Shown here in pieces: positions 4,830 to 35,933 of a stretch of 64,000 bases of DNA. Source of the DNA: a virus. The position numbers and the translations under genes are program-made. Position 1 is the first letter of the stretch. The number at the start of each line of letters is the position of its first letter. The notes under the pieces are model-generated. The model ran no database searches, was not told the DNA's origin, and worked only from the letters and a program-made list of their open reading frames with translations. The stretch is from IMG/VR virus record IMGVR_UViG_3300032883_000034. The stretch is one strand, 5' to 3'.

Positions 4830-5620
4830 ATCGGAACATCGCTTGTTTGTGCCACGTTGAATGATACCCCGGCGATAGCGACGGAGTTTAACTGATCTCC
4901 CAAAAACGCAATACGATGGAACTGGTTTTTAGAGCCGGTACATGCCCCGGAGATGGTTTCTCCAATCGTCCCAGCCGTAGTACCGCTGGATATCGTAGTC
5001 CATGCGGCATAGGCGGTGCCTCCCGTGGGAGAAGTCTGAACGACATATTGTGTGGCAACCTGACCCAAAAAGCTGCGGTCATTAGGCGCATAGGCGGTAA
5101 AGCTCAGGAGCGAATGGGTGATGACCGGAGTAGTCAGTGCCGATGGCACGGGCATTACAGTAACACCACCGCTCCAATTAACGCCCACATAATTATTGAA
5201 GCTGGAATTGGAGATAGTATTATTCGCGCACCTCCATGCCGGTTTATTGATGGAGCCATTAAATGCAGCAGCAACCCCGCCACCACCAGTAAGATTGCCA
5301 ATCTGATTACTATATTGAGGAAGAAAGGCATTTGGCGAAGCTCCAATTCCCGACATAGGATTGTCGGCCCCAACATAATCTTCCGGTCTTGCGTTCATGA
5401 TCGGAACAGGATCGGGCGGAAGAACAATAGTGCGGAGTTGTTCTTGTGATACGTCTAGGCATGACCGGCACACCAGTATCTTGATATTCTGAAGCGTAGG
5501 TCCGCGCCACGCAAATTGCCATTGCAGTTGGTTGTGATTATAAAGAAAGCCACAACGATCACATATCCCCAGTGCCGTGGGAGAATTTGGATTTATCGTT
5601 GCGTTGCCGTGTTCCCTCAT
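4826..5620 (-). CDS. Virion structural protein with N-terminal CxxC...CxxC zinc ribbon (264 aa)
   Basis: N-terminus ICDRCGFLYNHNQLQWQ...LVCRSCLDV, followed by a Ser/Thr/Gly-rich C-terminal domain. Translationally coupled on both sides. Confidence 0.5.
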   Translation of the reverse strand: MREHGNATINPNSPTALGICDRCGFLYNHNQLQWQFAWRGPTLQNIKILVCRSCLDVSQEQLRTIVLPPDPVPIMNARPEDYVGADNPMSGIGASPNAFLPQYSNQIGNLTGGGGVAAAFNGSINKPAWRCANNTISNSSFNNYVGVNWSGGVTVMPVPSALTTPVITHSLLSFTAYAPNDRSFLGQVATQYVVQTSPTGGTAYAAWTTISSGTTAGTIGETISGACTGSKNQFHRIAFLGDQLNSVAIAGVSFNVAQTSDVPI

Positions 5621-6321
5621 GGACGAAAGTATCCGCTTAATCCGGGAAGGATATTAAGGGCGACGTTCTCTGTATTTTGCGTTGCGGCAATTTGCCAAGC
5701 CTCGTCGGCATCGGCCTTTCTGATTTGCTCTAGCTCCGGTTTATAAATACGCGCCAGCCGGTGAGCGAGGCCAGCGGCCAAGGCATCCAGCCATAAGTAA
5801 GGCACTTCCACATTGGCGTTACCCGGCAAGGTGGCATCCTGAACCTGACGGACCCGATAATAGTAGACGGTATAGGGGCCGCTGCCATCCGGCGTTAAAT
5901 AGAAAGTTATGGTTGGAGATATCAGCCTGTCATACCAGAACTGCGTTGGCGATCCCTGCGCTGCCTTATTGGCAATAGAGGCGTACTCTGTCTGGCTCAA
6001 TGGAAAGATCAGCCGGTCAATCTTGCTGGTCCCGCTTCCTGTGCTGACATAAGCATTGGTAATCATCACCGTTTCAGCGGGCAGGGAATAAGAGGCCGTG
6101 CCTTGGGTAAGTGGCAAAGATTGAAGATCGACGGTCCACAGATTTGGTTGCAGGTTAGAAAAGCGGACCAGTAGATAATTCAACTCCTGAACCGCCTGTT
6201 GCAGATGGGAAACCAGAACTTCAGGAACCCTGACCTGAATCCGGGCAAAGGCATTCAAGATAATTTCGCCCGTGGAAGGAGCGAAGTTATATGATCCGCT
6301 ATAGACTTGGGGATTGAACAT
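5617..6321 (-). CDS. Virion structural protein (234 aa), head-tail adaptor candidate
   Basis: ORF track. Size and position at the head/tail boundary of the tail block. No motif-level proof. Confidence 0.4.
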   Translation of the reverse strand: MFNPQVYSGSYNFAPSTGEIILNAFARIQVRVPEVLVSHLQQAVQELNYLLVRFSNLQPNLWTVDLQSLPLTQGTASYSLPAETVMITNAYVSTGSGTSKIDRLIFPLSQTEYASIANKAAQGSPTQFWYDRLISPTITFYLTPDGSGPYTVYYYRVRQVQDATLPGNANVEVPYLWLDALAAGLAHRLARIYKPELEQIRKADADEAWQIAATQNTENVALNILPGLSGYFRP

Positions 6322-6325
6322 GAGA

Positions 6326-6868
6326 TTAGCCTATCTTCTCAAATCTTAAACCAGCAGCATGTTTTCTTTTCCCATTAATACATGAACTAATAGTAGATGG
6401 ATGTGCTCCAGTTTGTCGTGCGGCTTCTCTTAAACCATTATATATAATGCCAGTATCAAGACATTTTATCGGTTTTATTGGTCTGCGATGACCAGTTTGA
6501 TGTTTGGTTTTTTGCCAAGATATTTTCTGAGCTTCAGATACTTTTTTCTTAGATTCCTCTGAATGTTTTCTACCTATATTCCAAGTACAGCCAACAGCAT
6601 GTGAAACAAATTTCTCGCTATGTGCGAAGTTACATAAAGGATTAAAAGCTCTAATTAATTTTTGCTCCTCTTGCGATGCATCTCTTCTATTATCAAACCA
6701 ACAAAGAACGACAACTTTATATCCATTTGATGTAATGTCCTGCCAAACCTTAGGACGAAACGCCACTCTAAACGCCCGCTCTAAAGTTCCCATACCAATG
6801 TAGACGATTTGCTCGCCAACATAATGAGCGTAAACACAAATTCCGGGCTTAATTTCCATTTCGACCAC
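6326..6868 (-). CDS. GIY-YIG homing endonuclease with NUMOD3 and C-terminal HTH
   Basis: ICVYAHYVGEQIVYIGMG (GIY...YIG), downstream R/E/N pattern ...EEQKLIRAFNPLCN, and GRKHSEESKKKVSEAQK (NUMOD3-like). C-terminal GAHPSTISSCINGKRKHAAG. Visibly AT-rich compared with flanks. GTG start with GAGG upstream. Confidence 0.75.
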   Translation of the reverse strand: MVEMEIKPGICVYAHYVGEQIVYIGMGTLERAFRVAFRPKVWQDITSNGYKVVVLCWFDNRRDASQEEQKLIRAFNPLCNFAHSEKFVSHAVGCTWNIGRKHSEESKKKVSEAQKISWQKTKHQTGHRRPIKPIKCLDTGIIYNGLREAARQTGAHPSTISSCINGKRKHAAGLRFEKIG

Positions 6869-6877
6869 TTTGCTGCC

Positions 6878-7192
6878 TCAATAGGTAGAAGCTCGTTGAA
6901 GAACCCGGATTTGTCCGGTAGCCCAAGTTGTAGAACCCCCTCCAGCCGTAGCTACCCATGTTGCAAGACCCAAGGAAGCTAGGCTTGTGCCCCATATACC
7001 AGTGAAAAAGTTGTTGTTCTGGCTAAGGGTAACAGTATCCACAACCGAAGAACCTGATGTATTGGTGTAGGTTACGCTGATGGCCCCACTAAGAGGGACT
7101 GTTAAGGCTCCGGACGAAGTTAAGTATTCCACAACAAAAGCCGCAGAATTGCCATATTGAATATTAACTGGGCCACTATTGAAAGCTACCAA
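6878..7192 (-). CDS. Small Ser/Thr-rich virion protein (104 aa)
   Basis: ORF track; 1-nt gap to the upstream repeat-protein gene. Confidence 0.45.
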   Translation of the reverse strand: MVAFNSGPVNIQYGNSAAFVVEYLTSSGALTVPLSGAISVTYTNTSGSSVVDTVTLSQNNNFFTGIWGTSLASLGLATWVATAGGGSTTWATGQIRVLQRASTY

Positions 7193-7193
7193 G

Positions 7194-9209
7194 TCAGCTC
7201 TCCTTGAGCGATGTTGGAGAGTTTAACCCAAATTGCTCGGCAAGGGAAACGGGGGTTTGCCCGGAAGAAATCTCCTTGATGGAAACGCGGGCGCTGGCGA
7301 TAGCCCCGTAAGTGGACAGATAGATATTAGCTATATCACTGTTTATCTCGGTAGAAGCCCATACCACCGTAACATTTGGCTTGGGCAACAAGCGTGGGGG
7401 ATAGGCCAGCCATTGCTGTCCTTCTGGACGGAATCCCGGCCTGACGAGGCGAACGGGTTCCGACCATGGAAGAATGTAGGCCCAATCCGTTATCGGAATA
7501 ACGGCATTGGGAATCGGCAAGATATTGGCTGCATAGAACTGCTGAAGAGTAACAGACAGTCCCAGCTTGGTACGTACCGGTTCCGAAAACGCCTCAAACC
7601 ACGGGAATCTAGGAATGATGGGCAAGAGATTTGACGAATAGGTATGCTGGAGCGTCGGCAGCAATCCCGGCTTAAGCCGTACAGGCTCGGCCAGCGCCGA
7701 ATTCCAAGCCGCCATGCTGGGAATAATCGGCGTAAAATTGGATGAATAAGTATGCTGGAGAGTTGGCAGAAGTCCCGATTTGAGTCTAACCGGCTCTGCC
7801 AGAAGCCCATACCAAGACATGTTCTTGGACGGGTCAAAAGTAATAACGATGGCTGGGCCGGTATACGGAACTTGCTGGTAAGCCTGAAGGCCAAGCTTGA
7901 ACCGTACTGGCTCGTCAAAGGGCTTCAACCAAGAAGAAACCCTTACGTCGAATCTTGTTGGCTGAATAAAATCAGTCTCGGTAGTGGCTTGCTGGGAAGC
8001 CGCAGACAGACCGGATTTTGAGCGTACCGGCTCGTCAAACGCCTTCAGCCAAGATGAAACTCTTACGTCAAATAGAACTGACTGAATGAAGTCAGTTTCC
8101 GTAGTAGATTGCTGTAGGGCAGTCAAAAATGGTGAAGGCCTTAACCGCGTCGGCTCCGATAACGCCTCAAACCATGGATTTGCCGGAATAATGGGCAGAA
8201 AGTTAGACGTATAAAACTGTTGATGGCTGGCTAATAGCCCGGACTTGATTCTTACGGGTTCAGAAAGTGCCGTAACCCATGACGGCACCTTAACGTCAAA
8301 CAACACAGGCTGGATAAAGTCGGTTTCAGTTGCCGATTGCTGCTGGCTTGCCGCAAGCGCCGATTTCGACCTTACCGGTTCGTCAAATGGCTTTAACCAT
8401 GACGATACGGATACGTCATATAGCGAGGTCTGGATATTTACGAAGGCTAGGTCTTGATTAAGGCCGGTAGCCAGCCTTGGAGTAGTACGAACCGGCTCGG
8501 ACCAAGGTAGGATATATGCCCAATCGGTTATAGTAACGACCGGGGCAACCCAGTTTGAATCAACTTTAGACTGATACTGAAATCTGATTATTGCGGGAGG
8601 AGGACCGTCCCATGTAGTCGCAACCGCGCCGTTTACCGGAGTAACGGGCGTAGTAGAAGGGAAGATATTTAGAAATGCCTGCGCGTCCTGTTGCAGCGCA
8701 GTATTGATACGATTGAATCTTACCGGTTCAGACCAAGCGTAGTGCCATCTACTTTCATACTGGTTGATGATTTGTGTTTCATCATTCAGCGTAGGGGTCT
8801 GGTATGCCGGATGGTATTGAGCGCCCAATCCCGGCTTCTGTCGTACAGGCTCAGACCAAGCGTAGTGCCACTGGCTCTCGAATTTTGATCCCGGACCCGG
8901 AGAAGGAAGCGGGCCTGCAAACATGCCGGAAGCGGCAAGCGAAACGGCCAGCTTGGGATTAATGGATTGCCTGACCGGTTCAGACCAAGGCTGATGCCAG
9001 CGGCTTTCCAGTTTTTGGGTAATCTGAGTATCGGGATTAAGAACCGGAGCAAAAAGCCCCGATGAAGCGGCCAAGACTACTGCCGCTGCTACACTTACTT
9101 TCGGTCTGACAGGTTCAGCAAACGCTTGCTTAACCCAGCCAAATCCGGGAACGGAAGCAAGAAACCCAGAAGTCGGGTCCGTCTTTACCTGATATTGAAA
9201 GACGGTCAT
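7194..9209 (-). CDS. Virion repeat protein (671 aa) with about 14 copies of an x-EPVR motif; fibre/appendage candidate
   Basis: AFAEPVRPK, PWSEPVRQS, AWSEPVRQK, AWSEPVRFN, PWSEPVRTT, PFDEPVRSK, ALSEPVRIK, ALSEPTRLR, AFDEPVRSK, PFDEPVRFK, LLAEPVRLK, ALAEPVRLK, AFSEPVRTK, PWSEPVRLV, spaced about 40-50 aa apart. The repeats are also visible at DNA level around 7880-8460. Confidence 0.7.
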   Translation of the reverse strand: MTVFQYQVKTDPTSGFLASVPGFGWVKQAFAEPVRPKVSVAAAVVLAASSGLFAPVLNPDTQITQKLESRWHQPWSEPVRQSINPKLAVSLAASGMFAGPLPSPGPGSKFESQWHYAWSEPVRQKPGLGAQYHPAYQTPTLNDETQIINQYESRWHYAWSEPVRFNRINTALQQDAQAFLNIFPSTTPVTPVNGAVATTWDGPPPAIIRFQYQSKVDSNWVAPVVTITDWAYILPWSEPVRTTPRLATGLNQDLAFVNIQTSLYDVSVSSWLKPFDEPVRSKSALAASQQQSATETDFIQPVLFDVKVPSWVTALSEPVRIKSGLLASHQQFYTSNFLPIIPANPWFEALSEPTRLRPSPFLTALQQSTTETDFIQSVLFDVRVSSWLKAFDEPVRSKSGLSAASQQATTETDFIQPTRFDVRVSSWLKPFDEPVRFKLGLQAYQQVPYTGPAIVITFDPSKNMSWYGLLAEPVRLKSGLLPTLQHTYSSNFTPIIPSMAAWNSALAEPVRLKPGLLPTLQHTYSSNLLPIIPRFPWFEAFSEPVRTKLGLSVTLQQFYAANILPIPNAVIPITDWAYILPWSEPVRLVRPGFRPEGQQWLAYPPRLLPKPNVTVVWASTEINSDIANIYLSTYGAIASARVSIKEISSGQTPVSLAEQFGLNSPTSLKES

Positions 9210-9212
9210 GGC

Positions 9213-10361
9213 CTAGTACCCAATCACCTTGATAGGGCGGGTAATATCGCCAATCTGATCTTGAGATGCCATTTCAAAAAAGGTAGGAACATATTTTATG
9301 ACAATAAGGCCCTGAACTCCCGCCCCCGGCGAATTAATTTGACCAGCCCCGCCGCCGCCAGAACCCCAATTTCCACCTGTGGCACCACCGCCACCATTAT
9401 TACCACCAGCACCACCGCCGCCAGAGCCATGAGTAGAATCCCATTCCTTGCCAACACCGCCAGCGCCACCGGGGGCCGTTCCACCAGCACCGCCTATTGA
9501 GTTATCTCCAGCTCCACCGTTAGCACCAAGCGTGTTCGCTGTGCTGACGCCATTTACACCAGCGCCGCTTGAACCCCCGGCCCCAGCACCTCCAGCACCG
9601 CCAGAAGAACTACCTGTTTGTGACCCTCCAGTTCCTCCGTTTGATGAAAATGATGATCCGGGATTAAGTGTACCGCCGCCAGAGCCACCTATACATGCCG
9701 AAGCCAATCCTCCGACAGAGCCAGCCGGGGTTAAGCCTGTCGATGCACCTTTTGCGCCCACCGATGAAGCCGCAAAGGTTGCCGCATTAAACCAAGTATC
9801 TCCGGGGGTTACAATGTTTTCTGCGGTGGTTCCGGCACCTATCTGGTAGGTAGCACTCCCGCCTATTGTAAGGGCAAGAGCGGTGGCCTTGGCCCAAGCT
9901 CCGCCGCCACCGCCACCGTTGCCGACGCCGGTAGAATTGCCACCACCGCATCCTCCACCAAGACATTCAACTGAATTGCCCAACGTGGTAAAGTCTGATG
10001 GAACTGTATAGGTCTGGTTGCTGCCAGTGGGAGTGGTCAGGAAAGTATAAGCTGCGAATTCGTAGCCTACGCTCTCGCCAAGGCCGGGATACCAGTTGGG
10101 TGTTGGCAAATCCCATAGTGCTGGCTGGGTATGCAAGGAGCCGGTAAAGAGGGCAAACAGGAAAGCGTCGGCATCGTCCCTGTCGTCAAACCAGCCTTTC
10201 CAGACAATGTGACCGTCATCCAGCTTGGCAATAAGCCTGAAGCGGGTCTGGTTTTCTATGCCAAATACAGCTTGGCGCTGAGATGGCTGCCGCCATTCAC
10301 GCGCCGATACGGGCATCAACACCTTGGTTCTAGATACATTCCTGTCAGGAAGGATAAGCAT
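9213..10361 (-). CDS. Glycine-rich fibre-like virion protein (382 aa)
   Basis: Long GGxGG/GxGGxG tracts (GGGCGGGNSTGVGNGGGGGGAW, GGAGGAGAGGSSGAG, GGGGAGGNNGGGGATGGNWGSGGGGAG), ending GLIVIKYVP...KVIGY. Confidence 0.65.
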   Translation of the reverse strand: MLILPDRNVSRTKVLMPVSAREWRQPSQRQAVFGIENQTRFRLIAKLDDGHIVWKGWFDDRDDADAFLFALFTGSLHTQPALWDLPTPNWYPGLGESVGYEFAAYTFLTTPTGSNQTYTVPSDFTTLGNSVECLGGGCGGGNSTGVGNGGGGGGAWAKATALALTIGGSATYQIGAGTTAENIVTPGDTWFNAATFAASSVGAKGASTGLTPAGSVGGLASACIGGSGGGTLNPGSSFSSNGGTGGSQTGSSSGGAGGAGAGGSSGAGVNGVSTANTLGANGGAGDNSIGGAGGTAPGGAGGVGKEWDSTHGSGGGGAGGNNGGGGATGGNWGSGGGGAGQINSPGAGVQGLIVIKYVPTFFEMASQDQIGDITRPIKVIGY

Positions 10362-10371
10362 AGCATGGTCC

Positions 10372-11232
10372 TTAGTAGCCTATCATCTCGTATTTGCGCC
10401 AAGAAGCCGAATTCATCAAGCTGATCATAGCAATATTAAGCGTTGGCCCTGTTCCGGTAGATATAACCTGACTGCGGGGGTATGGGTAGATCAAAAAACA
10501 GTAGGGATTTTTGCCTATATAAATCATCTCCGCGTCTGACAGCGCGCGGTTCCATGCCAGCACCAGCGGGATCGAGCAGTTCGCCGCGCCGTCATCGGCA
10601 GCTTGAGCGCCAACACCACCGACAACCACCGCTTGCGATCCGGTGACGAGTGTTCCGGCGACGCTGTTGGGTGCCGAAGCCGTTACATTTTTACCGTCAA
10701 GCCATACGCTTGCGTTGCCACCAAAAAGGAACTTGCCGCCGAAAACGTGGAAATTACCATCTACACCAGATGTCGCGTTCGCCCCGCATTGCAAACCAAC
10801 GGTGTTCTGGACATAAAGCGCAAAATAACCGCTGTTTGCAACGGATTGATAGTTTACATCGGCAAGCAGCGTGATTTGCGTGTAGTCGGTGGACCCATGC
10901 CGCTGATTGAACAGAAACGGGTTTACTACGCCACTAGCCGCAGGGTTGGCGATGGCGATGATAGTAGTGTCACCACCCGTCAGCGGTTGCCATGTGCCGA
11001 AGTCGGCCTTTGTCGCGTCGGTCGATCCGGCTTTATAGGGTAGTCCGTAAAGCGATACGCTGGGTTGCACCCCAGTAGCTATAGTTGCCTTACGTCCGGT
11101 AATTAGATCAAATACATATCCGGGCTGTGTGACTGAACAAAATGCTAACTTATAGGATAATGGATGTGACCAATTAATACATGGTATTCCGACGCCGCCA
11201 AAAACATTAGGCTGGGGGAAGATGAGCGGCAT
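10372..11232 (-). CDS. LamG / concanavalin-A-like lectin-fold virion protein (286 aa)
   Basis: C-terminal pattern FHVFGGKF...VWLDGKNV...VVVGG...IPLVLAWNRALSDAEMIYIGKNPYCFL is typical of Laminin_G_3-type domains. Ends EMIGY. Confidence 0.55.
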   Translation of the reverse strand: MPLIFPQPNVFGGVGIPCINWSHPLSYKLAFCSVTQPGYVFDLITGRKATIATGVQPSVSLYGLPYKAGSTDATKADFGTWQPLTGGDTTIIAIANPAASGVVNPFLFNQRHGSTDYTQITLLADVNYQSVANSGYFALYVQNTVGLQCGANATSGVDGNFHVFGGKFLFGGNASVWLDGKNVTASAPNSVAGTLVTGSQAVVVGGVGAQAADDGAANCSIPLVLAWNRALSDAEMIYIGKNPYCFLIYPYPRSQVISTGTGPTLNIAMISLMNSASWRKYEMIGY

Positions 11233-11235
11233 TGG

Positions 11236-11736
11236 TTACGCATAGGTGTCGGCAACGGGGTAGACCTTGATCTGGGCCGAAGCTCCCATGGTCACGCCAG
11301 CATTGTTCTGGATGGCAAGTTTTGCCGTGCCGTAGGGCAGCGGCACAATAGGTCCGTTGGCATACCAGAGTGATCCTGCTTCAGCGCCATGGGTCGAAAG
11401 CGGGATTAAAAAGTCAGGAGAGCGCTGCAAGGGTATGTTGTTGCCGATGACGTTGGTGCTTTCCCAAGTCGTACCGCCGTCAATGCTATTCAGCCACCAA
11501 CCCGCGATATTGCAGCCAGCGGAGGCGGGCGTGAAGGATGCGCCAACGGTCAGGACCACATATCCATATTGAGCGGAGGGGCCAAGGTTGGTCTGCGAAA
11601 ACGAAACTGAGCATAGGGTCGTCTGACTAGACGTAAGGCTTGTCGATATATCCGAAGACGGAGCCAACGTAGAAACGGCATAGCCAGACCCGACAAGAAA
11701 GCCGTTGGTACCAGCTTGATGGATAAAGTTTGCCAT
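11236..11736 (-). CDS. Hypothetical virion protein (166 aa)
   Basis: ORF track, packed within the fibre region. Confidence 0.45.
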   Translation of the reverse strand: MANFIHQAGTNGFLVGSGYAVSTLAPSSDISTSLTSSQTTLCSVSFSQTNLGPSAQYGYVVLTVGASFTPASAGCNIAGWWLNSIDGGTTWESTNVIGNNIPLQRSPDFLIPLSTHGAEAGSLWYANGPIVPLPYGTAKLAIQNNAGVTMGASAQIKVYPVADTYA

Positions 11737-12182
11737 TAGACTAGGCCTCCAGCGGCTACAAGATCGTTCTGATTAATGGTTGGAGAAGCCAGACCGCCAC
11801 CACCTTGGGCGACCGGGGTATTGCACCACGGGGTAACCGTTGCCTTGGCCAAGGCGGTAAGATTGGCAATCGTGGTCGGGCCAGCATGTTTGGTCAGGAA
11901 CAGGTCAACGATCATCCCGGAAACCATATGGCTGGTCTGGGCACTACCGCCTATCAATTGTCCGGGGACATGCAGCATGGAAAGAAGATTGGATTGCTCT
12001 TGCGCTGTTAGCAGCAGAAATTCCGTATAATTGATGCAGTTAAGGAGCTGATCGCCGGTCGTGTACATCGTAGCCGGGACCGTGCCTGTCACCGTCAGGG
12101 CGTTGATCTGGTCCATCTTGGACTGGGTGGTGCCCGTCAGGGTATTCCACTTGGCGATAAGAGCGGTGTAGTCTTGCGACAT
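11736..12182 (-). CDS. Hypothetical virion protein (148 aa)
   Basis: ORF track; 1-nt overlap with the downstream gene. Confidence 0.45.
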   Translation of the reverse strand: MSQDYTALIAKWNTLTGTTQSKMDQINALTVTGTVPATMYTTGDQLLNCINYTEFLLLTAQEQSNLLSMLHVPGQLIGGSAQTSHMVSGMIVDLFLTKHAGPTTIANLTALAKATVTPWCNTPVAQGGGGLASPTINQNDLVAAGGLV

Positions 12183-12216
12183 ATCCTATTTCCTTATTGT
12201 AGCAAGGCAGGCTATC

Positions 12217-13467
12217 CTACATAAAGACAGAAACAGTCAGCAAACTAGCTACTATGTTACCAGAAATAGCGCCATAGAAGTTACATGCACCACCCGTATT
12301 TAATTCTACCGCTTGGAAAAAATGAACGCCCAGACCCGGATATCCGGAATATTTACCTATCACGGTGCTGCCTACGGCGGCTACATTGGCATTATATGCT
12401 TGCCCAACACTTTGCGCGGCGGTGTTAGTCGCGTCTAGGCCAACTCCACAATGACCGAACCCGCCACTGGCAGCAGGAACCGCTCCAGAAGCGTAATTTG
12501 CATCCACGGAATCCAAATCCAGTCCTCTGACAATAGTGGTGCGATTGGTGGTGCGGCCATTAACAGCGCGAAATGCACCGGTATTATTCGTCCAAGTAGC
12601 GCTCGTATCGCCAGTAACGCCAGTTACCCTGATGCGATTATAGGCATTCCATACGCCGAAGTATGCGGCTACTGGAGGATTAGCAACCGTGCCGTAAATC
12701 CAGTCGATCTGGGATGAGGCGTTGGATGCAATGGTGCCAACATAGGTGCCACGCAAGGCAGCGGGGCCGTTGGTAATCAGCGAGGTATTGAGCAAAATGC
12801 CATTCTGGTAGGTCAGGGTATAGCCGCGAGTTGTAGGCGTAGACCAAGCAGGGCCACGGGTGCATCTTAACACATAGGGAGATACCGTTGTATCCAGCCA
12901 GACAAAGAGATCGTAAACCGAACTAGCTCCAACCGCCGCAGGCGATTTGGTGGCATCCGTGGTAACTTGAGACATTTCTGTAAAAATAGTATTGACGAAG
13001 ACCTGTCCATCGAACACCGGAACCACGCTTCCAATATATGGCGTGTAATATACCGTGGTTTGACCTGACGTAGTGGCAGTCATGACAGGAGTGCCGGTCG
13101 TCAGCGTCAAGCGCCCCTGTGGCGATACGATATAGGGAAAGTCACCGGCCTTCGGTGTAATGAAGACCTGTGCTGCCGCCGTCATATTGATCGGAGTGGC
13201 CACGCCAGCGGTAGAAATATCGGGGGTTCTGGCTGTACCGCCAGCCCAAGGAGAGATACCCAATATCTTGGAAGACGAGAAGTAGGTGGCCGATCCTATC
13301 TCGGAGGCATTGGTATCGTTGATGGCATAGTTGACAAGCTGACCCGTAGCGGCAGTAGAACACAAAGCACCGTCAAAGGTCAGGAAACCCGACACCGCCG
13401 CATTGAGAGTAATGGTGTTCGTGCCGGTAGTGCTGACTGTCATGCGGGCCAGATTGAACAGTGCCAT
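12217..13467 (-). CDS. Tail fibre-like protein (416 aa)
   Basis: N-terminus MALFNLARMTVSTTGTNTITLNAAVSGFLTFDG...VNYAINDTNASEIGSATY resembles conserved N-termini of alphaproteobacterial phage/GTA fibre proteins (from memory). The rest is Ser/Thr/Gly-rich. Confidence 0.5.
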   Translation of the reverse strand: MALFNLARMTVSTTGTNTITLNAAVSGFLTFDGALCSTAATGQLVNYAINDTNASEIGSATYFSSSKILGISPWAGGTARTPDISTAGVATPINMTAAAQVFITPKAGDFPYIVSPQGRLTLTTGTPVMTATTSGQTTVYYTPYIGSVVPVFDGQVFVNTIFTEMSQVTTDATKSPAAVGASSVYDLFVWLDTTVSPYVLRCTRGPAWSTPTTRGYTLTYQNGILLNTSLITNGPAALRGTYVGTIASNASSQIDWIYGTVANPPVAAYFGVWNAYNRIRVTGVTGDTSATWTNNTGAFRAVNGRTTNRTTIVRGLDLDSVDANYASGAVPAASGGFGHCGVGLDATNTAAQSVGQAYNANVAAVGSTVIGKYSGYPGLGVHFFQAVELNTGGACNFYGAISGNIVASLLTVSVFM

Positions 13468-13469
13468 GG

Positions 13470-13772
13470 TTACAGCCCATACGATCTAAGGATACGTTCC
13501 CTGTTCTCTATTATCTCAAGCTTCTTCTCAAACGGAGTGCAGCCCTTTCCAAGACACTTAGGACATTCGAACTTCATGCATATCTTGCACAAGCCGCCCA
13601 TGTCGGCAGGGTCCATGAACGGCTTGATGTGAATTACACGATTACAATGATTACACGAGGCTGTATCTGTCTCGTGTATGCCGACGCCAATCTGCTCACA
13701 CCGCATCTTGTCAAAGACAACGGTAGTTTGAACCGGAGAAGTAATAAGCGCATAACCATGCGGAGATCGCAT
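13470..13772 (-). CDS. Small Cys-rich (multi-CxxC) protein (100 aa)
   Basis: I used an internal ATG at 13772 because the track start at 13898 would overlap the upstream gene. CNHCNRV...CKICMKFECPKCLGKGC. Confidence 0.45.
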   Translation of the reverse strand: MRSPHGYALITSPVQTTVVFDKMRCEQIGVGIHETDTASCNHCNRVIHIKPFMDPADMGGLCKICMKFECPKCLGKGCTPFEKKLEIIENRERILRSYGL

Positions 13773-13786
13773 AACGCAACCTAAGC

Positions 13787-14347
13787 TTACTGTTCTTGTA
13801 CAAGGAGCGTAGCGCTGACCAAACCTACGTAACCGCCGCCGCCGCCAGCGCCCTGAATCGCACGGAGCGCGAGGCCGTTGGAAGAAGTCGCGGGCCATAC
13901 CAGCTCAGAACCGGGAGCGGCCACCCAGCGATAGGAAGCGCGTTGGTTAATGGCCACGTTCCAGATGTCTGCAACATAGGTTCCGATTTCCGCCGAAGAA
14001 TTTACATATATGGCGGAGTTGGCGGGAGAGTCGGCACCGTCGAGCGCGAACAATGAAGAAGCACTCGTCAATGCTCCCACAAAGATATTGGTAGAAATCG
14101 CCGTGCCTCTCATAACGTCCCATTGAACCGAGGTATCGCCGGGGGTGGAGGGTTGCCCAATAAGAATGTCGTAAAGCTTGCCGCGCCGTGGGATGTATGG
14201 CGTTGCCGCAGTAGCGCCAGAAAAAGCGGAACCGGAGTTTGAAGACCCGTTTCCGACAACAGCAATCGTATTATACGCTGCACTGATAGCCCGTGGCGTA
14301 CCGCCAAAGGTGATACCGGTAGAGTTAGAAACTGCGTAGTTAGCCAT
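13787..14347 (-). CDS. Hypothetical virion protein (186 aa)
   Basis: ORF track; Ser/Thr/Gly/Ala-rich; structural operon. Confidence 0.5.
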   Translation of the reverse strand: MANYAVSNSTGITFGGTPRAISAAYNTIAVVGNGSSNSGSAFSGATAATPYIPRRGKLYDILIGQPSTPGDTSVQWDVMRGTAISTNIFVGALTSASSLFALDGADSPANSAIYVNSSAEIGTYVADIWNVAINQRASYRWVAAPGSELVWPATSSNGLALRAIQGAGGGGGYVGLVSATLLVQEQ

Positions 14348-14428
14348 GGCGTAATCTCCTTATCCTTGGCCGATTAGAATGAAACTAGTGCCCAGATAGA
14401 CTATCGATATATTTACTTCAGATTGCAT

Positions 14429-15376
14429 TTATCCCTGACCTATCCAAATCGAGCGAAAATAATCGATGTCTTCGAGGGCACCCTCAAGATAGGTGATGTT
14501 ACGCTGTATCTCCTGTACCCTCTGGTGTACTGGATCGTTCTTCATTTCGACTATCCGCGCCTTAAGTTCGGTTTCGCGGGCCAGAACCTTGCGACCAAAT
14601 GGGGTTACCTCCGAGTAGCCATAGAGGCCCGGAGATCGCATGATATCGCTCTCATGGGGAGCGCTTACCTTGATGCCGCGTTTTTCGGCTTCGTGCCTGA
14701 AGAAGAAGAAGCCGGGACGCTGAAGGATGTATTCGTCGCGAGATGCCATGTCGATCCCGTACAGGGCAATCTCGGTAGCGCCCTGCTTCATGGCGAAGGC
14801 CATCATCCATGCAAATGAGGATGTAAAGAAGCCGTCGCCAAATTCAGCAACCATCTCCTTATAAGGAAACGAAAGGGCATTGGGGATAACGCTGTTATCC
14901 TGCATGTAAAGCGGAATATTGAGCGTCTTCATCCAGTTGATATAAGGCTCGCCGTAATGCTTGTTTTCCGGCCACATCAAATTGCCGTGGAGTTCGAACC
15001 ACGCATCGACGCGGGGGATGACATTCTGGTTGCCCGGAGAACAACACCAGATCGTCCATGACGGGTCATTGAAGGGGGCCAACAGCCGGGAAGACGGGGC
15101 GGTGCCAATCAGGGCGACCTTGAGCGGCTTTGACTCTGCGGCAGGGGCAATTGGGAGGGGTGCGACAACGGCGGGTTGTTCACTGTTTGTTCCCAAAAAA
15201 GCATTGGGCATCTGGATGGGCGGAAGCTGGGCCTCGCTTTGAAGCGGCTCATGAACCGCTTCGATCTTTAACTTGCGGACATATGGCCTTTTAATCCGCT
15301 CTTCTGTGTGTGGCGCAGCATGAATCCCGCCGTTTCCATTGACGGAATCGTTATAGGTAGGCGTAAGTTTCCCCAT
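14429..15376 (-). CDS. Putative nonulosonic-acid (sialyl-type) transferase, GT42 / Maf (DUF115)-like (315 aa)
   Basis: KVALIGTAPSS...WTIWCCS resembles the Cst-II start VIIAGNGPSL...DVFRCN. TSSFAWMMAFAMKQGATEIALYGIDMA resembles Cst-II TSGVYMCAVAIALGYKEIYLSGIDF and the Maf/MptE-like GGSV...LG...I.L.G.D motif. The comparison is from memory and needs profile confirmation. Confidence 0.4.
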   Translation of the reverse strand: MGKLTPTYNDSVNGNGGIHAAPHTEERIKRPYVRKLKIEAVHEPLQSEAQLPPIQMPNAFLGTNSEQPAVVAPLPIAPAAESKPLKVALIGTAPSSRLLAPFNDPSWTIWCCSPGNQNVIPRVDAWFELHGNLMWPENKHYGEPYINWMKTLNIPLYMQDNSVIPNALSFPYKEMVAEFGDGFFTSSFAWMMAFAMKQGATEIALYGIDMASRDEYILQRPGFFFFRHEAEKRGIKVSAPHESDIMRSPGLYGYSEVTPFGRKVLARETELKARIVEMKNDPVHQRVQEIQRNITYLEGALEDIDYFRSIWIGQG

Positions 15377-15378
15377 AT

Positions 15379-15768
15379 TTAACTACCTGTTATCTGGGCC
15401 GATATCACGGCCACGGTTTGTCCAGCGGATATCAAGGTGCTATTCAATCCATTACTCAGGATTATGTCTACTCCGGTAGCACCCGGTATCCCTACGGTTA
15501 AGCCGCTGACTTGAACGGCTCCGCTGAAATCTTTTACCACAGCTCCATTTACGAAGCCAGTAGCTGAAGCGGCGGGGTCCAGCAGGGTACCCTGAAAGGT
15601 GAGTATCCCTCCAGCTACTGTACCGCTGGGCACAGACAGGGCTATGGTGGAAATGGTGGTGCCTGAAGAGGTCAGGATCAGGCTTCCGTTGCCTCCCCCG
15701 CTATCGATGGCGGTTACGACACCTAAAAGACGATAGTTAATGCAACTCTGGCTATAAGTAAGAGACAC
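15379..15768 (-). CDS. Small Ser/Thr/Gly-rich virion protein (129 aa)
   Basis: ORF track; 2-nt spacing to neighbours. Confidence 0.45.
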   Translation of the reverse strand: MSLTYSQSCINYRLLGVVTAIDSGGGNGSLILTSSGTTISTIALSVPSGTVAGGILTFQGTLLDPAASATGFVNGAVVKDFSGAVQVSGLTVGIPGATGVDIILSNGLNSTLISAGQTVAVISAQITGS

Positions 15769-15769
15769 C

Positions 15770-16174
15770 TCACCAACCGTCCCCTTGGATTACCTTCATC
15801 GTAATGATTGTGGTGGTGCCTGCTGTAAGGGATGTGCTGTTCATGCGAACGGCGGCAACGGGGTTAAGAAAGGAAATGGTATAGCCGGTATCAAACCATG
15901 TCGTGCTGGTTAGCTGAAGCGCCGTATTGCTGCCAGCGGCGCTGGAAATGGGGAGCCAGACCACAAGGCTGGATGGGACACGCTGAATATCGTCCAGAGT
16001 ATATTGGAGGGTGGCAGTACAAGAACTGACAGACGAGTTCCAGCTCAGAGAAACGGTAGATGGCTTCCCACCTATCCAGTTAAGGGCAACGGAATTGCTC
16101 GGCCCCGGAGTGGTGCTGTTAGCGACCGAGGTGCTGAGTGGGATTGTCGATAGGGTTACCGAAGCATAAGGCAT
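15770..16174 (-). CDS. Small Ser/Thr-rich virion protein (134 aa), paralogue of 17317-17682
   Basis: Shares CTATLQYTLDD / CANVYVQFTLDD, W..ISSA / WCALSSA and a C-terminal ...ST..AG...ITMKVIQ / VTMKALQ with the 121-aa protein. Confidence 0.5.
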   Translation of the reverse strand: MPYASVTLSTIPLSTSVANSTTPGPSNSVALNWIGGKPSTVSLSWNSSVSSCTATLQYTLDDIQRVPSSLVVWLPISSAAGSNTALQLTSTTWFDTGYTISFLNPVAAVRMNSTSLTAGTTTIITMKVIQGDGW

Positions 16175-16311
16175 CCATCACCCCTGCGGAAACGGTTGAG
16201 GATGAGGAGTGTCCTGAATTGGCCTTTGGATAGGTCTTGAGTGAGACATCAATGTGGCCTTAACCTTGAGGGTGATTGACTTACAATATCAAACATATAA
16301 TACTGGATGCA

Positions 16312-16854
16312 ATGCGCAGTAAAAATCAATTTCGAAGAAATCAATCCCGAGGCAAAATCAGAATGCTTTGCGCCGGGTGCGGCAAAACCTTTACGCGATA
16401 TGCGGCCCACATAAGAGGAAATACCACATCTTGTTCTCAGGAATGCTCTTGGATTATTAAACCCAAGAAACAACAAACGCTTGTTGAGTTTACCTGCATG
16501 GGGTGTGGCGCGACCTTTCAGAGAAGAAAGGGGTACGGTGGCCCCGGAAAATATTGCTCTGCAAAATGCAGACAGCAATTTTCCACACGCAAAGGGAAAG
16601 ATCACCCAAGATGGAGAGGCGGAATTTCTAAAAGAAAACACTCTGACAGAATAGCCGTCAGAGAAAGGCTTAAAGAAATCAAGGCCTGCGAAAGATGCGG
16701 TTCCTCTGAACATCTTCACGGCCATCACAAAAAGTCCTATTCCGACTATCCTGAATTAAGAGCAGATATTTCTAACATTGAAATTCTTTGCATCCACTGT
16801 CATGCAAAAGAGCATCCAAAGGTTAGTAAGCTGTTACTTTCTAGGATGGCCTAA
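16312..16854 (+). CDS. HNH homing endonuclease with N-terminal Cys-rich zinc fingers
   Basis: CERCGSSEHLHGHHKKSY...NIEILCIHCHAKEH (HNH). Opposite strand to all flanking structural genes. The track start at 16276 is TTG; the first ATG is at 16312, so the start is uncertain. Confidence 0.8.
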   Translation: MRSKNQFRRNQSRGKIRMLCAGCGKTFTRYAAHIRGNTTSCSQECSWIIKPKKQQTLVEFTCMGCGATFQRRKGYGGPGKYCSAKCRQQFSTRKGKDHPRWRGGISKRKHSDRIAVRERLKEIKACERCGSSEHLHGHHKKSYSDYPELRADISNIEILCIHCHAKEHPKVSKLLLSRMA

Positions 16855-17028
16855 ACTTAGAGAAAGTAAGGGCCAATCTAGCTCTTTTACCCAAAATGCC
16901 CGGAGCGTGGCGTTTTTCTTTTGCAAATTCAGCGGTGGATTTACCGGCTCTATGAGCCGCCATTCTGAAGCTCCCCGGCTTCGCGACAGCGTGTTGCATC
17001 CAAGTAGCGCTACCTCCGGTTGAGTAAT

Positions 17029-17304
17029 CTAGCCCCCCTTTTGATAGGCCGAGGAGAAGGGGTTCTTGTCGGAGCCAGAGCGACCGCCACGGGCGCGTTT
17101 GTCGAGGCGACCACCGGTTGCCTTGCCCGGCACCTTGCCGCCTTCGGCCTTGGTGATTGCGCCCTTCTTGTCACCCTGCTTGGCTTCCTTGACAACATCC
17201 TTGTTGCCGTAGTCAAGCTGGGCTTTCTTTACCCCGGCGATCTTGCCCTTGTCGGACTTCATGCCAGTAGAGTTACCAGCCTGAGATTTGTGTCTATTAG
17301 CCAT
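17029..17304 (-). CDS. Small Lys/Gly-rich basic protein (91 aa)
   Basis: ORF track. Contains GGRLDKRARGG, also present in 23394-24281. Confidence 0.5.
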   Translation of the reverse strand: MANRHKSQAGNSTGMKSDKGKIAGVKKAQLDYGNKDVVKEAKQGDKKGAITKAEGGKVPGKATGGRLDKRARGGRSGSDKNPFSSAYQKGG

Positions 17305-17316
17305 CTTGATCTCCTG

Positions 17317-17682
17317 TTAACCGGTAACGGCCTGAAGGGCCTTCATGGTGACAACGGTACCGGCTCCAGCCGCTGTGGTGGATGATAACCTCAGGCCTCC
17401 AAGCGGAGACAAGATCGTATAGAGAGCGCCACCGGCACCTACACTGATATCGACCGCCGAAGAAGCGATAGCCGAACTAAGAGCACACCAAGTTACGGAG
17501 GGGCCGCCCACAATGGTCGGATCATCCAACGTAAACTGGACGTAAACGTTTGCACAGGAAGAACCGGATGCTGCGGTAACCTGAACGGTCGTGGTTCGCA
17601 TCACCGGGTTAAGCGTAATAGCGGCAGAGTTACCTACCGCAACCGAGGTAGAGGCATTGGAAAGAGTGGTATATTGAGCCAT
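17317..17682 (-). CDS. Small Ser/Thr-rich virion protein (121 aa), paralogue of 15770-16174
   Basis: See 15770-16174. Confidence 0.5.
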   Translation of the reverse strand: MAQYTTLSNASTSVAVGNSAAITLNPVMRTTTVQVTAASGSSCANVYVQFTLDDPTIVGGPSVTWCALSSAIASSAVDISVGAGGALYTILSPLGGLRLSSTTAAGAGTVVTMKALQAVTG

Positions 17683-18909: not shown

Positions 18910-19419
18910 CTAGGATGCCCCCTCACTGGCAAACTCTCCATGAAACTCAGGAAGCTTGTTACAATAGGCGTTATAGGCCTCTTCGGCGGAATTATATCGC
19001 TTACTGGATTTAATTCTCTTGCCGTTCACCACAACTTGCCACCTGTATTTGTTTCTCTCTTTATCGTGAACTACGCACTTGAAACCAATAGAATTGTCTT
19101 TTCTGATACCGTTATTTTGTTTGTTCTGTGAAGGGGTAGCTTCCCTCAAATTTTCCCAACGATCATCACTTGGATTGCGATTGATATGATCCATTTGATG
19201 CTTGGGCCACTCACCAGTTACACAGAAAAACGCCAGACGAGAGACTCGATATAGAGTTCCATCAATACAGATAGAACGATACCCCTCAGAATTAAGACTA
19301 CCTGCTATGGTCCCGGCTGGATATCTTCCATAACGACCGGCATTCTGCCGCCATGTAAAATTTCCAGTGGTTTGATTATAGTCTAGTAGCTCAATTAACC
19401 TTTCATGCGTCAGGTCCAT
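18910..19419 (-). CDS. HNH (HNH_3-type) homing endonuclease with C-terminal AP2-like domain
   Basis: LIELLDYNQTTGNFTWR...DHINRNPSDDRWENLREATPSQNKQN...EEAYNAYCNKLPEFHGEFA. Paralogue of 62648-63166. AT-rich. Start chosen by alignment to the paralogue; the track start is 19458. Confidence 0.8.
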   Translation of the reverse strand: MDLTHERLIELLDYNQTTGNFTWRQNAGRYGRYPAGTIAGSLNSEGYRSICIDGTLYRVSRLAFFCVTGEWPKHQMDHINRNPSDDRWENLREATPSQNKQNNGIRKDNSIGFKCVVHDKERNKYRWQVVVNGKRIKSSKRYNSAEEAYNAYCNKLPEFHGEFASEGAS

Positions 19420-19489
19420 TTTTATTTCCCATGTAAATGTCACTATGGACAAATACATGGGTAACTTATTTTGGTCAATAGTTAACTAA

Positions 19490-20404
19490 CTATGACACAG
19501 GGAACGTGCCCCAAACGGCCCGCCAATCATAGTAGGTCGGAACGTAACGCTGGTAGCCCTTGACCAACAGATTGTCCGTGGTGAACTCCACCGACATGTC
19601 CATTTCGAATGGCTTGCGGTCGAACCAGACCAGACCATCGTGATTGGTAAGCACGAACCAGCCGAAGCTTGAGGTGAGGTAATCCCAGACCATGAACCCT
19701 TCTTTGTAGGATTCGTTCATGCCGAGGATAGCATTCACATCATTGGTGGCGGTGCCGGGACGAAGCTCCGAACGGAACAGCCGGATGGCAATCGGCTCAA
19801 GGTTCGGGGGAACCAGAAGCTTGCGGCCACGGGCATGAATCTTCAGGCCCGCATTATCCTTCCAGTTCGCACGGATAGTGATACCGGCGTTCAGAAGCGA
19901 GGTTTCATTCAGGTCAACGTCCGGTGACGGCTGGTTACCAATGGTAGCGCCATCAATCGGATGGGCGGTACTAAAGAGGGAAACACCGTCGCCTTGGGTA
20001 GCGGTGTTAAAGGTCGTGCCGGTATTGAAGACGTTGGCGGCGTAGATTTCTTCGGTTTCCTTAAAGGATTCCATCAGGCCGTCATTGGAAGGACCAAACT
20101 CTGACTTGTAGAGGTTGTCATCGATGGCCTTGCGGGTAATCGCGTAACCAAGGCCGATTTCCAGATGTTCCGCGTTGTAGACGAAGCGTTCGCCAGCGGC
20201 GTTATCGAAGGCGGTAGGTGCGCCTTCGTACTTGAGCTGGGCAAGGCCGAGGTAGCGCATGGAGGCGCGGCGCTCAAGGGCCATGTTCGAATCAGTGCGC
20301 CGGAAGACTTTCGGCCATTGGCGTTCGATCATTGGATACTTGCCGCTGATACCCCACAGGCCGGGGAGCAGAAGATCGCGGATTTGACTGAGTGCGACGG
20401 GCAT
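19490..20404 (-). CDS. Major capsid protein, HK97 fold class (304 aa)
   Basis: Size and position after scaffold. Sequence pattern typical of HK97-type coat proteins (LFSTAHP...LLVPPNLEPIAIRLFRSELRPGTATNDVNAI...). Confidence 0.75.
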   Translation of the reverse strand: MPVALSQIRDLLLPGLWGISGKYPMIERQWPKVFRRTDSNMALERRASMRYLGLAQLKYEGAPTAFDNAAGERFVYNAEHLEIGLGYAITRKAIDDNLYKSEFGPSNDGLMESFKETEEIYAANVFNTGTTFNTATQGDGVSLFSTAHPIDGATIGNQPSPDVDLNETSLLNAGITIRANWKDNAGLKIHARGRKLLVPPNLEPIAIRLFRSELRPGTATNDVNAILGMNESYKEGFMVWDYLTSSFGWFVLTNHDGLVWFDRKPFEMDMSVEFTTDNLLVKGYQRYVPTYYDWRAVWGTFPVS

Positions 20405-22777: not shown

Positions 22778-23206
22778 TTAAAATACGATGGCCGGGTTCT
22801 TGACCTTGAGCCTGATATTGGAGTCGCGGACAAGGCGGCAGGCGATATCTCCAATGTTAAGGCTCCAAGCGTCCCCAACCTTGAAGACTACCCATTCGCC
22901 AACGGCGATCTTCTGACCGTGGAAATTGTATTCCCCATCATCCTCAAAGGCATTTGGGCCTAATTTGAGAACCAGACCGGCCTTACCCTGCCAAACATCT
23001 TCGCTGACATTGGAATCCGGCCTGATGATGCCGCCCTTGGTCTTCTCTGGGCGAATATAAATTGCCAATAAAATGCTGTTAAACATGACATCCACATCCT
23101 CAAGTTTCTCCTTGAGGGCGGTCATGATGTGATTCTTGAATTCTTCCGGGGTCTGGTATTGCGCCAAGGCGCTAACGGTATGATGCGGCACAGCTAAATT
23201 AGACAT
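22778..23206 (-). CDS. GroES/Cpn10-like co-chaperonin (142 aa)
   Basis: C-terminal 95 aa follow the Cpn10 pattern: LLAIYIRPEKTKGGIIRPDS...GKAGLVLKLGPNAF...IAVGEWVVFKVGDAW...ACRLVRDSNIRLKV. Confidence 0.55.
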   Translation of the reverse strand: MSNLAVPHHTVSALAQYQTPEEFKNHIMTALKEKLEDVDVMFNSILLAIYIRPEKTKGGIIRPDSNVSEDVWQGKAGLVLKLGPNAFEDDGEYNFHGQKIAVGEWVVFKVGDAWSLNIGDIACRLVRDSNIRLKVKNPAIVF

Positions 23207-30217: not shown

Positions 30218-30219
30218 CG

Positions 30220-35902: not shown

Positions 35903-35933
35903 TCCCATCGGCCAAGGATAAGGAGCTGGTGAA

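Follow-up and report, generated by a model that had tools for sequence, protein, structure and literature searches.

What does a phage that carries genes for making a sialic-acid-like sugar do with that sugar? The question is raised by the sequence of IMG/VR virus record IMGVR_UViG_3300032883_000034, a stretch of 64,000 nucleotides that we refer to in its whole length as the window, in which a biosynthesis island for a pseudaminic-acid (Pse)-type sugar lies 14.2 kb from a gene at positions 14429-15376 on the minus strand (the target). An original prediction, made from the letters of the window, had proposed this gene as the transferase partner of the island. Our analysis of structural models, sequence motifs and genomic context leads us to infer, with good confidence, that the target is a transferase of ulosonic acids. 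Its acceptor is probably a virion protein, modified by O-glycosylation, as the position of the gene suggests. When both parts are taken together, the most likely function of the target, and one that we favour with some reserve, is that of a transferase that uses cytidine monophosphate (CMP)-activated pseudaminic acid and acts on virion proteins.

The target begins with an ATG codon two nucleotides past the stop codon of the gene that precedes it on the minus strand, and encodes a protein of 315 amino acids. This open reading frame (ORF) and the segments of it that had been singled out in the original prediction are all present in the sequence: KVALIGTAPSS (residues 86-96), WTIWCCS (residues 107-113) and TSSFAWMMAFAMKQGATEIALYGIDMA (residues 185-211). 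The protein has no match in Pfam (at E<=10), PHROGs, NCBIfam or the PDB sequences. Searches for relatives returned 944 homologs at E<=1e-3, none of which has a Pfam domain, and an alignment of 33 target homologs has about 90 invariant positions, so the target is a real gene. In an exhaustive profile search the family extended to 4180 clusters at 50% identity, and its typical members are stand-alone proteins of 225-300 amino acids. A pattern-based scan of bacteria and archaea, with one genome per species and 185,579 species, found four copies of the family, all on contigs of metagenome-assembled genomes, versus 206 in viral contigs with the same profile. The family therefore looks phage-borne, and we consider the target the founding member of an unnamed and unannotated protein family that appears to be carried by phages.

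The target protein consists of an N-terminal extension, a core and a C-terminal hairpin. The extension (residues 1-84, positions 15125-15376, minus strand) is clade-specific, proline-rich and predicted to be disordered; it is variable in the alignment, is modelled with predicted local distance difference test (pLDDT) values below 55, and holds the conserved motifs MGKLTPTF and HEPL. The majority of the family members found by profile search begin at the core, without these 84 residues, and a docking role for the extension is speculative. The predicted catalytic core (residues 85-245, positions 14642-15124, minus strand) is a single Rossmann-like domain, as judged by the model, Foldseek, hhalign and a table of motifs. 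These motifs are GTAPSS, WxIWxCSP, WFELH, FTSS..AWM, GIDM..EYxxQR and PxESD in the core of the target, and G-[TS]-A-P-S-S, W-x-I-W-x-C-S-P, W-F-E-L-H, F-T-S-S..A-W-M, G-[IV]-D-M..E-Y-x-x-Q-R, P-x-E-S-D, Y-G-Y and G-A-L-E-D across the family. The C-terminal helical hairpin (residues ~259-311, positions 14444-14602, minus strand), which was delimited by the secondary structure of the model and by conservation in the alignment, carries the conserved motif LEGALEDxDY and may serve in acceptor binding or oligomerisation.

A first model of the target was good in the core only; when it was compared with the PDB, Cst-II ranked first (E=5e-5), ahead of a Pasteurella sialyltransferase, with thiamin pyrophosphokinase next. 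A model of the core that was built from a more diverse alignment reached a pLDDT of 92.3 and a predicted template-modelling score (pTM) of 0.82. When this core model was compared with the PDB using Foldseek, the 13 best matches were all CMP-sialyltransferases of glycosyltransferase family 42 (GT42; Cst-II, Cst-I and PmST), with E-values from 4.5e-6 to 1.5e-4 and a probability of 1.00. Lower matches were thiamin pyrophosphokinases (E=8e-4) and the human GT29 enzyme ST6GALNAC2 (E=3e-3), followed by SteA and YcfA. The thiamin pyrophosphokinase matches are about 100-fold weaker than those to GT42, and the comparison does not place the target among the pyrophosphokinases.

We also compared the family with GT42 at the level of sequence profiles. 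The Cst-II sequence was confirmed against PDB entry 2wqq_A over 291 residues, a match that also showed the Cst-II segments quoted in the original prediction to be correct, and GT42 homologs were collected into a profile for hhalign. The target family matches this profile locally, over 33 columns that span T-S-(S/G)...G-I-D...Y (P=3.7e-4), with T185/S186 of the target paired with T131/S132 of Cst-II, G207/D209 with G152/D154, and Y216 with Y162; in global mode, hhalign gave no match between the family and GT42. A relaxed hhalign alignment is collinear and further equates G91-P94-S95 with G8-P11-S12 and F127-E128 with F35-E36, and includes the C-terminal P-x-x-S strand. The positions of the CMP-binding motif are invariant or nearly so both in the target family and in the GT42 alignment, and the family thus carries this motif. 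In addition, a diverse family profile compared with the PDB picked out the same TS(S/G)...G(I/V)D stretch in PmST, below threshold (E=1), while the family profiles otherwise returned only coiled-coil noise from the PDB sequences. Because the stretch in PmST, the P-value from hhalign and the GT42-first ranking by Foldseek agree, the resemblance of the motifs to those of GT42 exceeds what would be expected by chance. The parallel with GT42 that had been drawn from the letters alone is therefore upheld, both by the fold matches and by the alignment of the donor-site motifs.

Like the GT42 enzymes (Cst-II, Cst-I and PmST; PF06002), the target has a single Rossmann-like domain with a collinear order of strands, has collinear donor-site motifs (G-x-x-P-S, F-E after strand 3, T-S-(S/G) and G-I-D...Y), and is predicted to use a CMP-activated nine-carbon acidic sugar. 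Unlike them, the target family has invariant residues of its own (W110, H130, E215, Q219, Y252 and ESD at 242-244), has a C-terminal helical hairpin where Cst-II has its membrane-association region, and is phage-borne; its predicted donor is Pse rather than N-acetylneuraminic acid (Neu5Ac), and its predicted acceptor is a protein rather than a lipooligosaccharide (LOS) glycan. The fold of MptE, the namesake of PF01973, and of the N-terminal domain of thiamin pyrophosphokinase, as well as SteA and YcfA, share with the target a Rossmann-like nucleotide-binding fold; however, these proteins rank below GT42 and lack a link to genes for nonulosonic acids (NulOs), and the context of the target family has no pterin, thiamin or alarmone logic. 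Several true GT42 proteins have a precomputed match to PF01973. Since the match to GT42 is confined to local motifs and to the fold, and since there is no significant sequence match to PF06002 or PF01973, models and sequence comparison suggest that the target family is a distant relative of the GT42/Maf (MptE-like fold) superfamily at the level of fold and donor site, not a member by sequence.

The closest functional analogy to the target is with Maf (PF01973/DUF115 central domain; structure 5MU5). Maf is a cytoplasmic enzyme that moves Pse, legionaminic acid (Leg), Neu5Ac or 3-deoxy-D-manno-octulosonate (Kdo) from CMP-sugars straight onto the serine or threonine residues of a self-assembling structural protein. 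Its central domain has a modified GT-A fold that is structurally related to GT42 and is Cst-II-like in the donor-binding region; mutagenesis has found D272, S334 and D357 of CbMaf, and D285, S356 and N379 of GkMaf, to be essential; and CbMaf accepts Kdo and Neu5Ac (bioRxiv 10.1101/2020.06.03.131540). In both CbMaf and GkMaf the spacing from the Ser to the Asp or Asn is 23, and the near-invariant S186 and the invariant D209 of the target are also 23 residues apart. The near-invariant E128 lies 58 residues before S186, which gives the acid...Ser...Asp order of the Maf triad as a positional analogy. The original prediction had drawn a parallel with Maf/DUF115 as well; a recognisable relationship by significant sequence match to PF01973, or by a Maf structure among the top 50 fold matches, was not recovered. 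Maf genes adjoin genes for NulO biosynthesis, and the target family is likewise coupled to such genes. On the other hand, Maf proteins are multi-domain, with PF01973 in the centre, while the target family has a core of ~225 amino acids plus the hairpin, to which the window protein adds its disordered extension of 84 amino acids, and the presumed acceptor of the target is a phage protein, not flagellin. The target would accordingly be most Maf-like in mechanism; it is nearest to GT42 in structure, belongs to neither in sequence, and lacks the catalytic histidine of Cst-II.

The donor that we propose for the target is suggested by the Pse-type biosynthesis island, which was annotated with Pfam and NCBIfam and occupies positions 29609-38354 on the plus strand. 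It begins with genes that Pfam assigns to a GNAT protein (29609-30217), a methyltransferase (30031-30819), a formyltransferase (30807-31421), a GFO/IDH/MocA oxidoreductase (31406-32272) and a cytidylyltransferase fused to a class-III aminotransferase (32269-34317). These are followed by a NeuB-family synthase, PseI (34671-35690), and by two genes for which PseB and PseC are the best NCBIfam models: a PseB-like dehydratase with an N-terminal extension of ~105 amino acids (36019-37191) and a PseC-like aminotransferase (37188-38354). The synthase scores 369 bits, above the PseI equivalog cutoff of 340, and this score, together with the best models of its neighbours, justifies the label 'Pse-like' that the sugar had received in the original prediction. 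PseG, the UDP-sugar hydrolase (UDP, uridine diphosphate), was not recognised in the island with Pfam or NCBIfam. The island without a recognisable PseG, and with extra tailoring enzymes, suggests a modified Pse derivative and a possible dependence on a step provided by the host. It had also been stated that the island, ~14 kb from the target, encodes no other recognisable glycosyltransferase; we indeed found none there with Pfam and NCBIfam, nor any in a Pfam scan of 20 further ORFs of the window. When viral contigs were searched with single proteins of the island, the window's PseI (NeuB) had no match, and its PseB was found at four loci only.

The acceptor is suggested by the place of the target among virion genes. 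On the minus strand of the window, the gene for the terminase large subunit (TerL; 27781-29379; PHROG 38, E=1e-83), which is oriented divergently from the island, is followed by those for the portal (24547-26949), a GroES-like co-chaperonin (22778-23206) and the major head protein (19490-20404; PHROG 371), and then by a long run of structural-looking genes. The target has the major head protein gene on one side and conserved structural genes on its downstream side. Directly upstream of it is a gene for a small protein of 129 amino acids with 25.6% serine plus threonine (15379-15768, minus strand), which is present in 44 of 58 related loci. The minus-strand genes at 15770-16174 (134 amino acids, 32.8% serine plus threonine) and 17317-17682 (121 amino acids, 27.3%) are paralogs of each other (blastp E=1e-6). 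The downstream neighbour (13787-14347, minus strand; 186 amino acids, 19.9%) is the most consistent partner, found beside the target in 50 of the 58 loci, and is a candidate acceptor or virion protein. The original prediction had described the flanking proteins as Ser/Thr-rich, and with 20-33% serine plus threonine, versus ~11% for enzymes, they are (block versus rest, Mann-Whitney P=5e-4). Its label of a 'tail-fibre module', by contrast, could not be confirmed, as the target's neighbours have no match in Pfam or PHROGs. The paralogs at 15770-16174 and 17317-17682 have very low charge and share QYTLDD/QFTLDD-like and TMKVIQG/TMKALQA-like motifs, and may be decoration or fibre proteins.

We compared 58 loci around close homologs of the target, 80 around TerL homologs, and 80 loci of a sister clade that were anchored on the head module, where TerL proteins that are >=57% identical to that of the window define the close clade and those that are 42-48% identical the sister clade. 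The major head protein of the window is 84-86% identical to its counterparts in two close-clade loci, and ~64% identical to those in the sister clade. The neighbours of the target are kept beside it in 44-50 of the 58 loci around its homologs. The Pse island adjoins TerL in every close-clade TerL locus, to the extent of each sequence; the target gene and the core genes of the island are found together on four contigs, and a fifth contig reaches the edge of the island. In contrast, island genes adjoin TerL in none of 60 sister-clade TerL loci, a family member occurs in none of the 80 sister-clade head-module loci, 33 of which hold a homolog of the gene at 5617-6321 downstream of their head genes, and NeuB has no match in any of 140 sister-clade control loci. 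The target gene and the Pse island are thus present together in the window's clade, and both are unseen in the sister-clade loci examined.

Gene order in the sister clade is the same as in the window. However, the major head protein and the homolog of 5617-6321 are ~2-7 kb apart in the sister clade versus ~13 kb in the window, which implies that the structural module of the window's clade contains an additional block of ~11 kb (6326-17682, minus strand). This clade-specific block holds the target. Among its genes, only those at 17029-17304 (three matches) and 9213-10361 (one match) have counterparts in the sister clade, and the genes at 15379-15768, 15770-16174, 17317-17682 and 13787-14347, which flank the target, have no match in the sister-clade loci. 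The window approximates an entire phage genome, and a protein identical to the target is encoded on a contig of 65,310 bp; the extra block of ~11 kb and the Pse island of 8.7 kb fit the larger size of contigs in the window's clade (65-77 kb versus ~55-62 kb).

The coupling to NulO genes recurs in phages that are unrelated to the window. A second, podovirus-like lineage, which shares no structural gene with the window, has family members that are 35-43% identical to the target. Among its loci with >=7 kb of upstream sequence, 26 of 30 have a NeuB homolog 2.5-9 kb upstream of the family member and nearly always on its strand, and in 66 of 69 loci TerL begins downstream of the family member, at a median distance of 170 bp. 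The gene order at one of these loci (L202) is PseB, PseC, cytidylyltransferase, NeuB, methyltransferase, two unknowns, a HisF-like gene, one further unknown, the family member, terS, a TerL-sized ORF without a Pfam match, and portal. The HisF-like (His_biosynth) gene just upstream of the family member (L202 8662-9429) is present in 38 of 86 loci of this lineage, and an unannotated ORF of 217 amino acids beside it in 40 of 86. In bacteria, HisF/HisH-type pairs are tied to the acetamidino modification of NulOs.

Furthermore, the family domain is fused to a CMP-sugar synthetase of the SpsF/PseF type in nine clusters, which come from several sources and are down to 61% identical, and this recurrence led us to reject the explanation of the fusion as an assembly artefact. 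Synthetases of this type are elsewhere fused to NeuB, PseC-like, GNAT and PseG-like partners. In HK97-like siphoviruses (loci L312-L314), the fusion gene lies between the head-tail connector and head-closure genes, and there are no NulO genes within 10 kb; because of this context, an 'activate and transfer' module makes sense there, whereas a PseG substitute does not. Another HK97-type phage (L146) encodes a family member with an N-terminal fusion to a PhyH-like domain (2-oxoglutarate/Fe dioxygenase-like, E=1.4e-3; positions 4894-6408, protein P0237), flanked by the gene for the major capsid protein and those for the head-tail connector, with a 2-hydroxyacid dehydrogenase gene upstream and no NeuB nearby. 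Finally, Microcystis phage Mvi-Yong1342-1 carries a homolog that is 31% identical to the target, immediately upstream of terS (PP496355.1 34781-35584). The deposited label of this homolog, 'type 11 methyltransferase', has no support from fold or motifs and is probably wrong. The Microcystis phage has no NulO pathway, and does have a 'sugar O-methyltransferase', a XerD-type recombinase and repressor-like genes. In five of five contexts examined, the family gene is located in or directly beside morphogenesis genes. Since members without nearby NulO genes exist, the donor may differ among members or come from the host, and such members may use host CMP-Kdo or host nonulosonic acids.

The genomic coupling of the family to the Pse/NulO pathway is therefore tight, and the proposed partnership between the target gene and the island is supported by their co-presence and co-absence between clades, by the NeuB neighbour in an unrelated lineage, and by the fusion to a CMP-sugar synthetase. 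Under the mechanism that we propose, the phage's own island would make a CMP-activated derivative of pseudaminic acid, which is possibly N-formylated or methylated because of the extra enzymes of the island. The target would bind this CMP-sugar via its G-x-A-P-S loop, its T-S-S motif and its G-I-D...E-Y loop, and would move the nonulosonic acid onto nascent virion proteins, in the cytoplasm and late in infection; the placement of the gene suggests that it is expressed alongside the virion genes. The most likely linkage would be a direct O-linkage to Ser or Thr, like that made by Maf on flagellin. Virion proteins are the most likely acceptors in view of the placement of the gene among morphogenesis genes, the compact soluble model and the precedent of Maf, and the best candidates among them would be the small Ser/Thr-rich flanking proteins described above, which co-vary with the target.

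Several observations weigh against this reading of the target. The TM-scores to GT42 structures are 0.42-0.49 over 187-252 aligned columns, under the usual 0.5 line for the same fold, and they fall slightly short of it partly because of the extra C-terminal hairpin of the target. The fold is also that of thiamin pyrophosphokinase, SteA and YcfA, albeit with less significant E-values (Foldseek 8e-4 to 1e-2). The hhalign probability versus GT42 is just 36%, over the 33 columns covered, and PF06002 was matched by none of 46 diverse family members at E<=1, nor by the target. PF01973 was matched by one of 46 family members, at E=0.15, and not by the target; there is no Maf structure among the top 50 fold matches of the target models, and the correspondence with the Maf triad is one of spacing, not of alignment. 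In Cst-II, His188, on the lid, is the catalytic base, and Arg129 and Tyr156 contact the donor. The segment of Cst-II that contains His188 (~165-190) is opposite a gap, in a low-confidence part of the hhalign alignment, and Arg129 and Tyr156 are not conserved, being replaced by F183 and A211 in the target. The sequence offers E215, E242, D244 or H130, any of which may serve as an alternative catalytic base. With regard to genomic context, the fusion to the CMP-sugar synthetase alone implies membership in the pathway, not a particular step, since this synthetase has many pathway partners, and there are no NulO genes near some family members (the Microcystis phage, L146 and 4 of the 30 lineage-2 loci). 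Richness in Ser and Thr is weak evidence for an acceptor, because it is common, together with low charge, in fibre and decoration proteins of phages.

These points leave room for other explanations, which differ in whether they alter the acceptor or the activity itself. A nonulosonic-acid transferase could act outside the virion, on host lipopolysaccharide or LOS, capsule, flagellin, pilin or another envelope target, where the modification might, for instance, prevent superinfection or keep progeny from adhering to debris. We regard this as unlikely, though it has clear points in its favour: Cst-II, Cst-I and PmST, the closest structural relatives of the target, sialylate lipooligosaccharide glycans, and the homolog-bearing Microcystis phage is apparently temperate, given its XerD-type recombinase and repressor-like genes, with lysogenic conversion of surface glycans being well known. 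Yet the family gene keeps company with packaging or morphogenesis genes in five of five contexts, not with lysogeny or early genes; no flippase, ligase or envelope-assembly gene was found among the scanned ORFs of the window; the model is compact and soluble, with no hydrophobic segment obvious by eye, although no transmembrane prediction was run; and the target co-varies with a block of putative virion proteins that are rich in Ser and Thr. A nucleic-acid acceptor, with the nonulosonic acid attached to phage DNA as a hypermodified base, is the explanation to which we give the least credence. Phages are known to glycosylate DNA bases, the glucosylated hydroxymethylcytosine of T4 being an example, but no hydroxymethylase, thymidylate-synthase-like or other base-modification gene was found among the scanned ORFs, the family gene is consistently found near head, tail and packaging genes and not near those for replication, and we know of no DNA glycosylation that depends on CMP-sugars.

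The activity itself could also differ. The lack of a recognisable PseG in the island would be accounted for if the target were a pathway enzyme, such as a non-orthologous replacement of PseG or an enzyme for another step that modifies nucleotide sugars, and a nucleotide-sugar hydrolase is, in mechanism, a transferase with water as its acceptor; moreover, the fusion of the SpsF/PseF-type cytidylyltransferase to many pathway enzymes means that the last step is not implied by it. Nevertheless, the fusion in L312-L314 occurs without PseB, PseC or PseI within 10 kb, so that such an enzyme would have no substrate there, and on account of this stand-alone fusion we rejected the role of a PseG substitute. 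The pathway is likewise missing from the Microcystis phage and from L146, all recognised pathway genes of the window are in the island while the target is 14 kb away among virion genes, and the structural matches are CMP-dependent, whereas the substrate of PseG in the Pse pathway is a UDP-sugar. A role as a pathway enzyme in general is thus improbable. We consider it more doubtful still that the target is a nucleotide binder of MptE- or thiamin pyrophosphokinase-like fold without glycosyltransferase activity, be it a pyrophosphokinase or a regulator like SteA or YcfA. Such proteins are among the fold matches (thiamin pyrophosphokinases at E=8e-4, SteA and YcfA), the single family member that matches PF01973 'MptE-like' does so at E=0.15, and the catalytic His of Cst-II is not conserved; but GT42 outranks them by two orders of magnitude in both models, the sole alignment at the level of profiles is to the GT42 donor site, and neither NeuB in 26 of 30 lineage-2 loci nor the fusion to a CMP-sugar synthetase has a rationale for a pyrophosphokinase.

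A transferase of CMP-pseudaminic acid that acts on virion proteins, which we thus prefer, has a partial precedent. According to two articles, tailed phages, namely mycobacteriophages, encode glycosyltransferases that apparently serve their own virion proteins (PMC12582341, citing Freeman et al. 2023; PMC11256854). The window phage would resemble them in having a tailed-phage glycosyltransferase that is apparently for proteins of its own particle; unlike them, it also encodes a pathway for an activated nonulosonic acid, and its enzyme is from another, unnamed family. The glycosylated mycobacteriophages reportedly rely on conventional enzymes of GT-A/GT2 type and on nucleotide sugars of the host (hexoses). 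Our search of the literature, whose coverage was incomplete, found no earlier account of the target family, nor of a decoration of phage virions with nonulosonic acids. The chemistry and the fold class are therefore known, and what is new is the enzyme family and a phage that itself produces a sialic-acid-like sugar, which it probably places on its own particle.

With slightly more doubt than conviction, we further suggest that the large phage family (>=4180 clusters at 50% identity) consists of ulosonic-acid transferases, of which the target is the first to be recognisable, and that a 'sialylation-like' decoration of virions is widespread in environmental phages. If so, the sugars would be Pse derivatives made by the phage or ulosonic acids of the host that a fused synthetase activates, and the enzyme would be at work at the site of assembly, by analogy with the glycosylation of flagellin. 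Thousands of 'hypothetical' phage proteins would thereby receive a name and a function that can be tested, the missing transferase of nonulosonic-acid gene clusters in phages would be identified, and virion glycosylation, which is documented mainly in mycobacteriophages with ordinary sugars, would extend to sialic-acid-like sugars made by phages. On bacterial surfaces, sialic-acid-like sugars affect recognition, charge, stability and immune evasion. On phage particles, they could change the range of hosts, adsorption, the ability to withstand proteases or grazers, and the way in which particles interact with animal immune systems, which would be relevant to phage therapy and virus ecology. A compact enzyme of ~230 amino acids, above all as part of the naturally occurring 'activate and transfer' fusion, could also serve in glyco-engineering, a use for which Maf enzymes are already under study (PMC11339370).

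Other features of the window were noted in the course of the analysis. A Cys-rich, zinc-ribbon-like ORF of 142 amino acids (CNHCNRV...CKICMKFECPKCLGKGC; 13470-13898, minus strand) overlaps the 3′ end of 13787-14347 by 112 nucleotides; it has no family match, and its conservation in 45 of the 58 related loci makes it a probable gene, whose start codon may be a later one. Two HNH homing-endonuclease genes look like recent mobile insertions into the structural module. The first (16276-16854) is on the plus strand, opposite to the structural module, and is present in none of the 58 related loci; the other (18910-19458, minus strand) comes directly after the gene for the major head protein and occurs in only 11 of the 58. 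Elsewhere in the window, a gene at 40988-42196 (plus strand) encodes a DUF2201/VWA-like putative metallopeptidase, and one at 63169-63969 (minus strand) encodes a domain of the inorganic pyrophosphatase type (PF18823).

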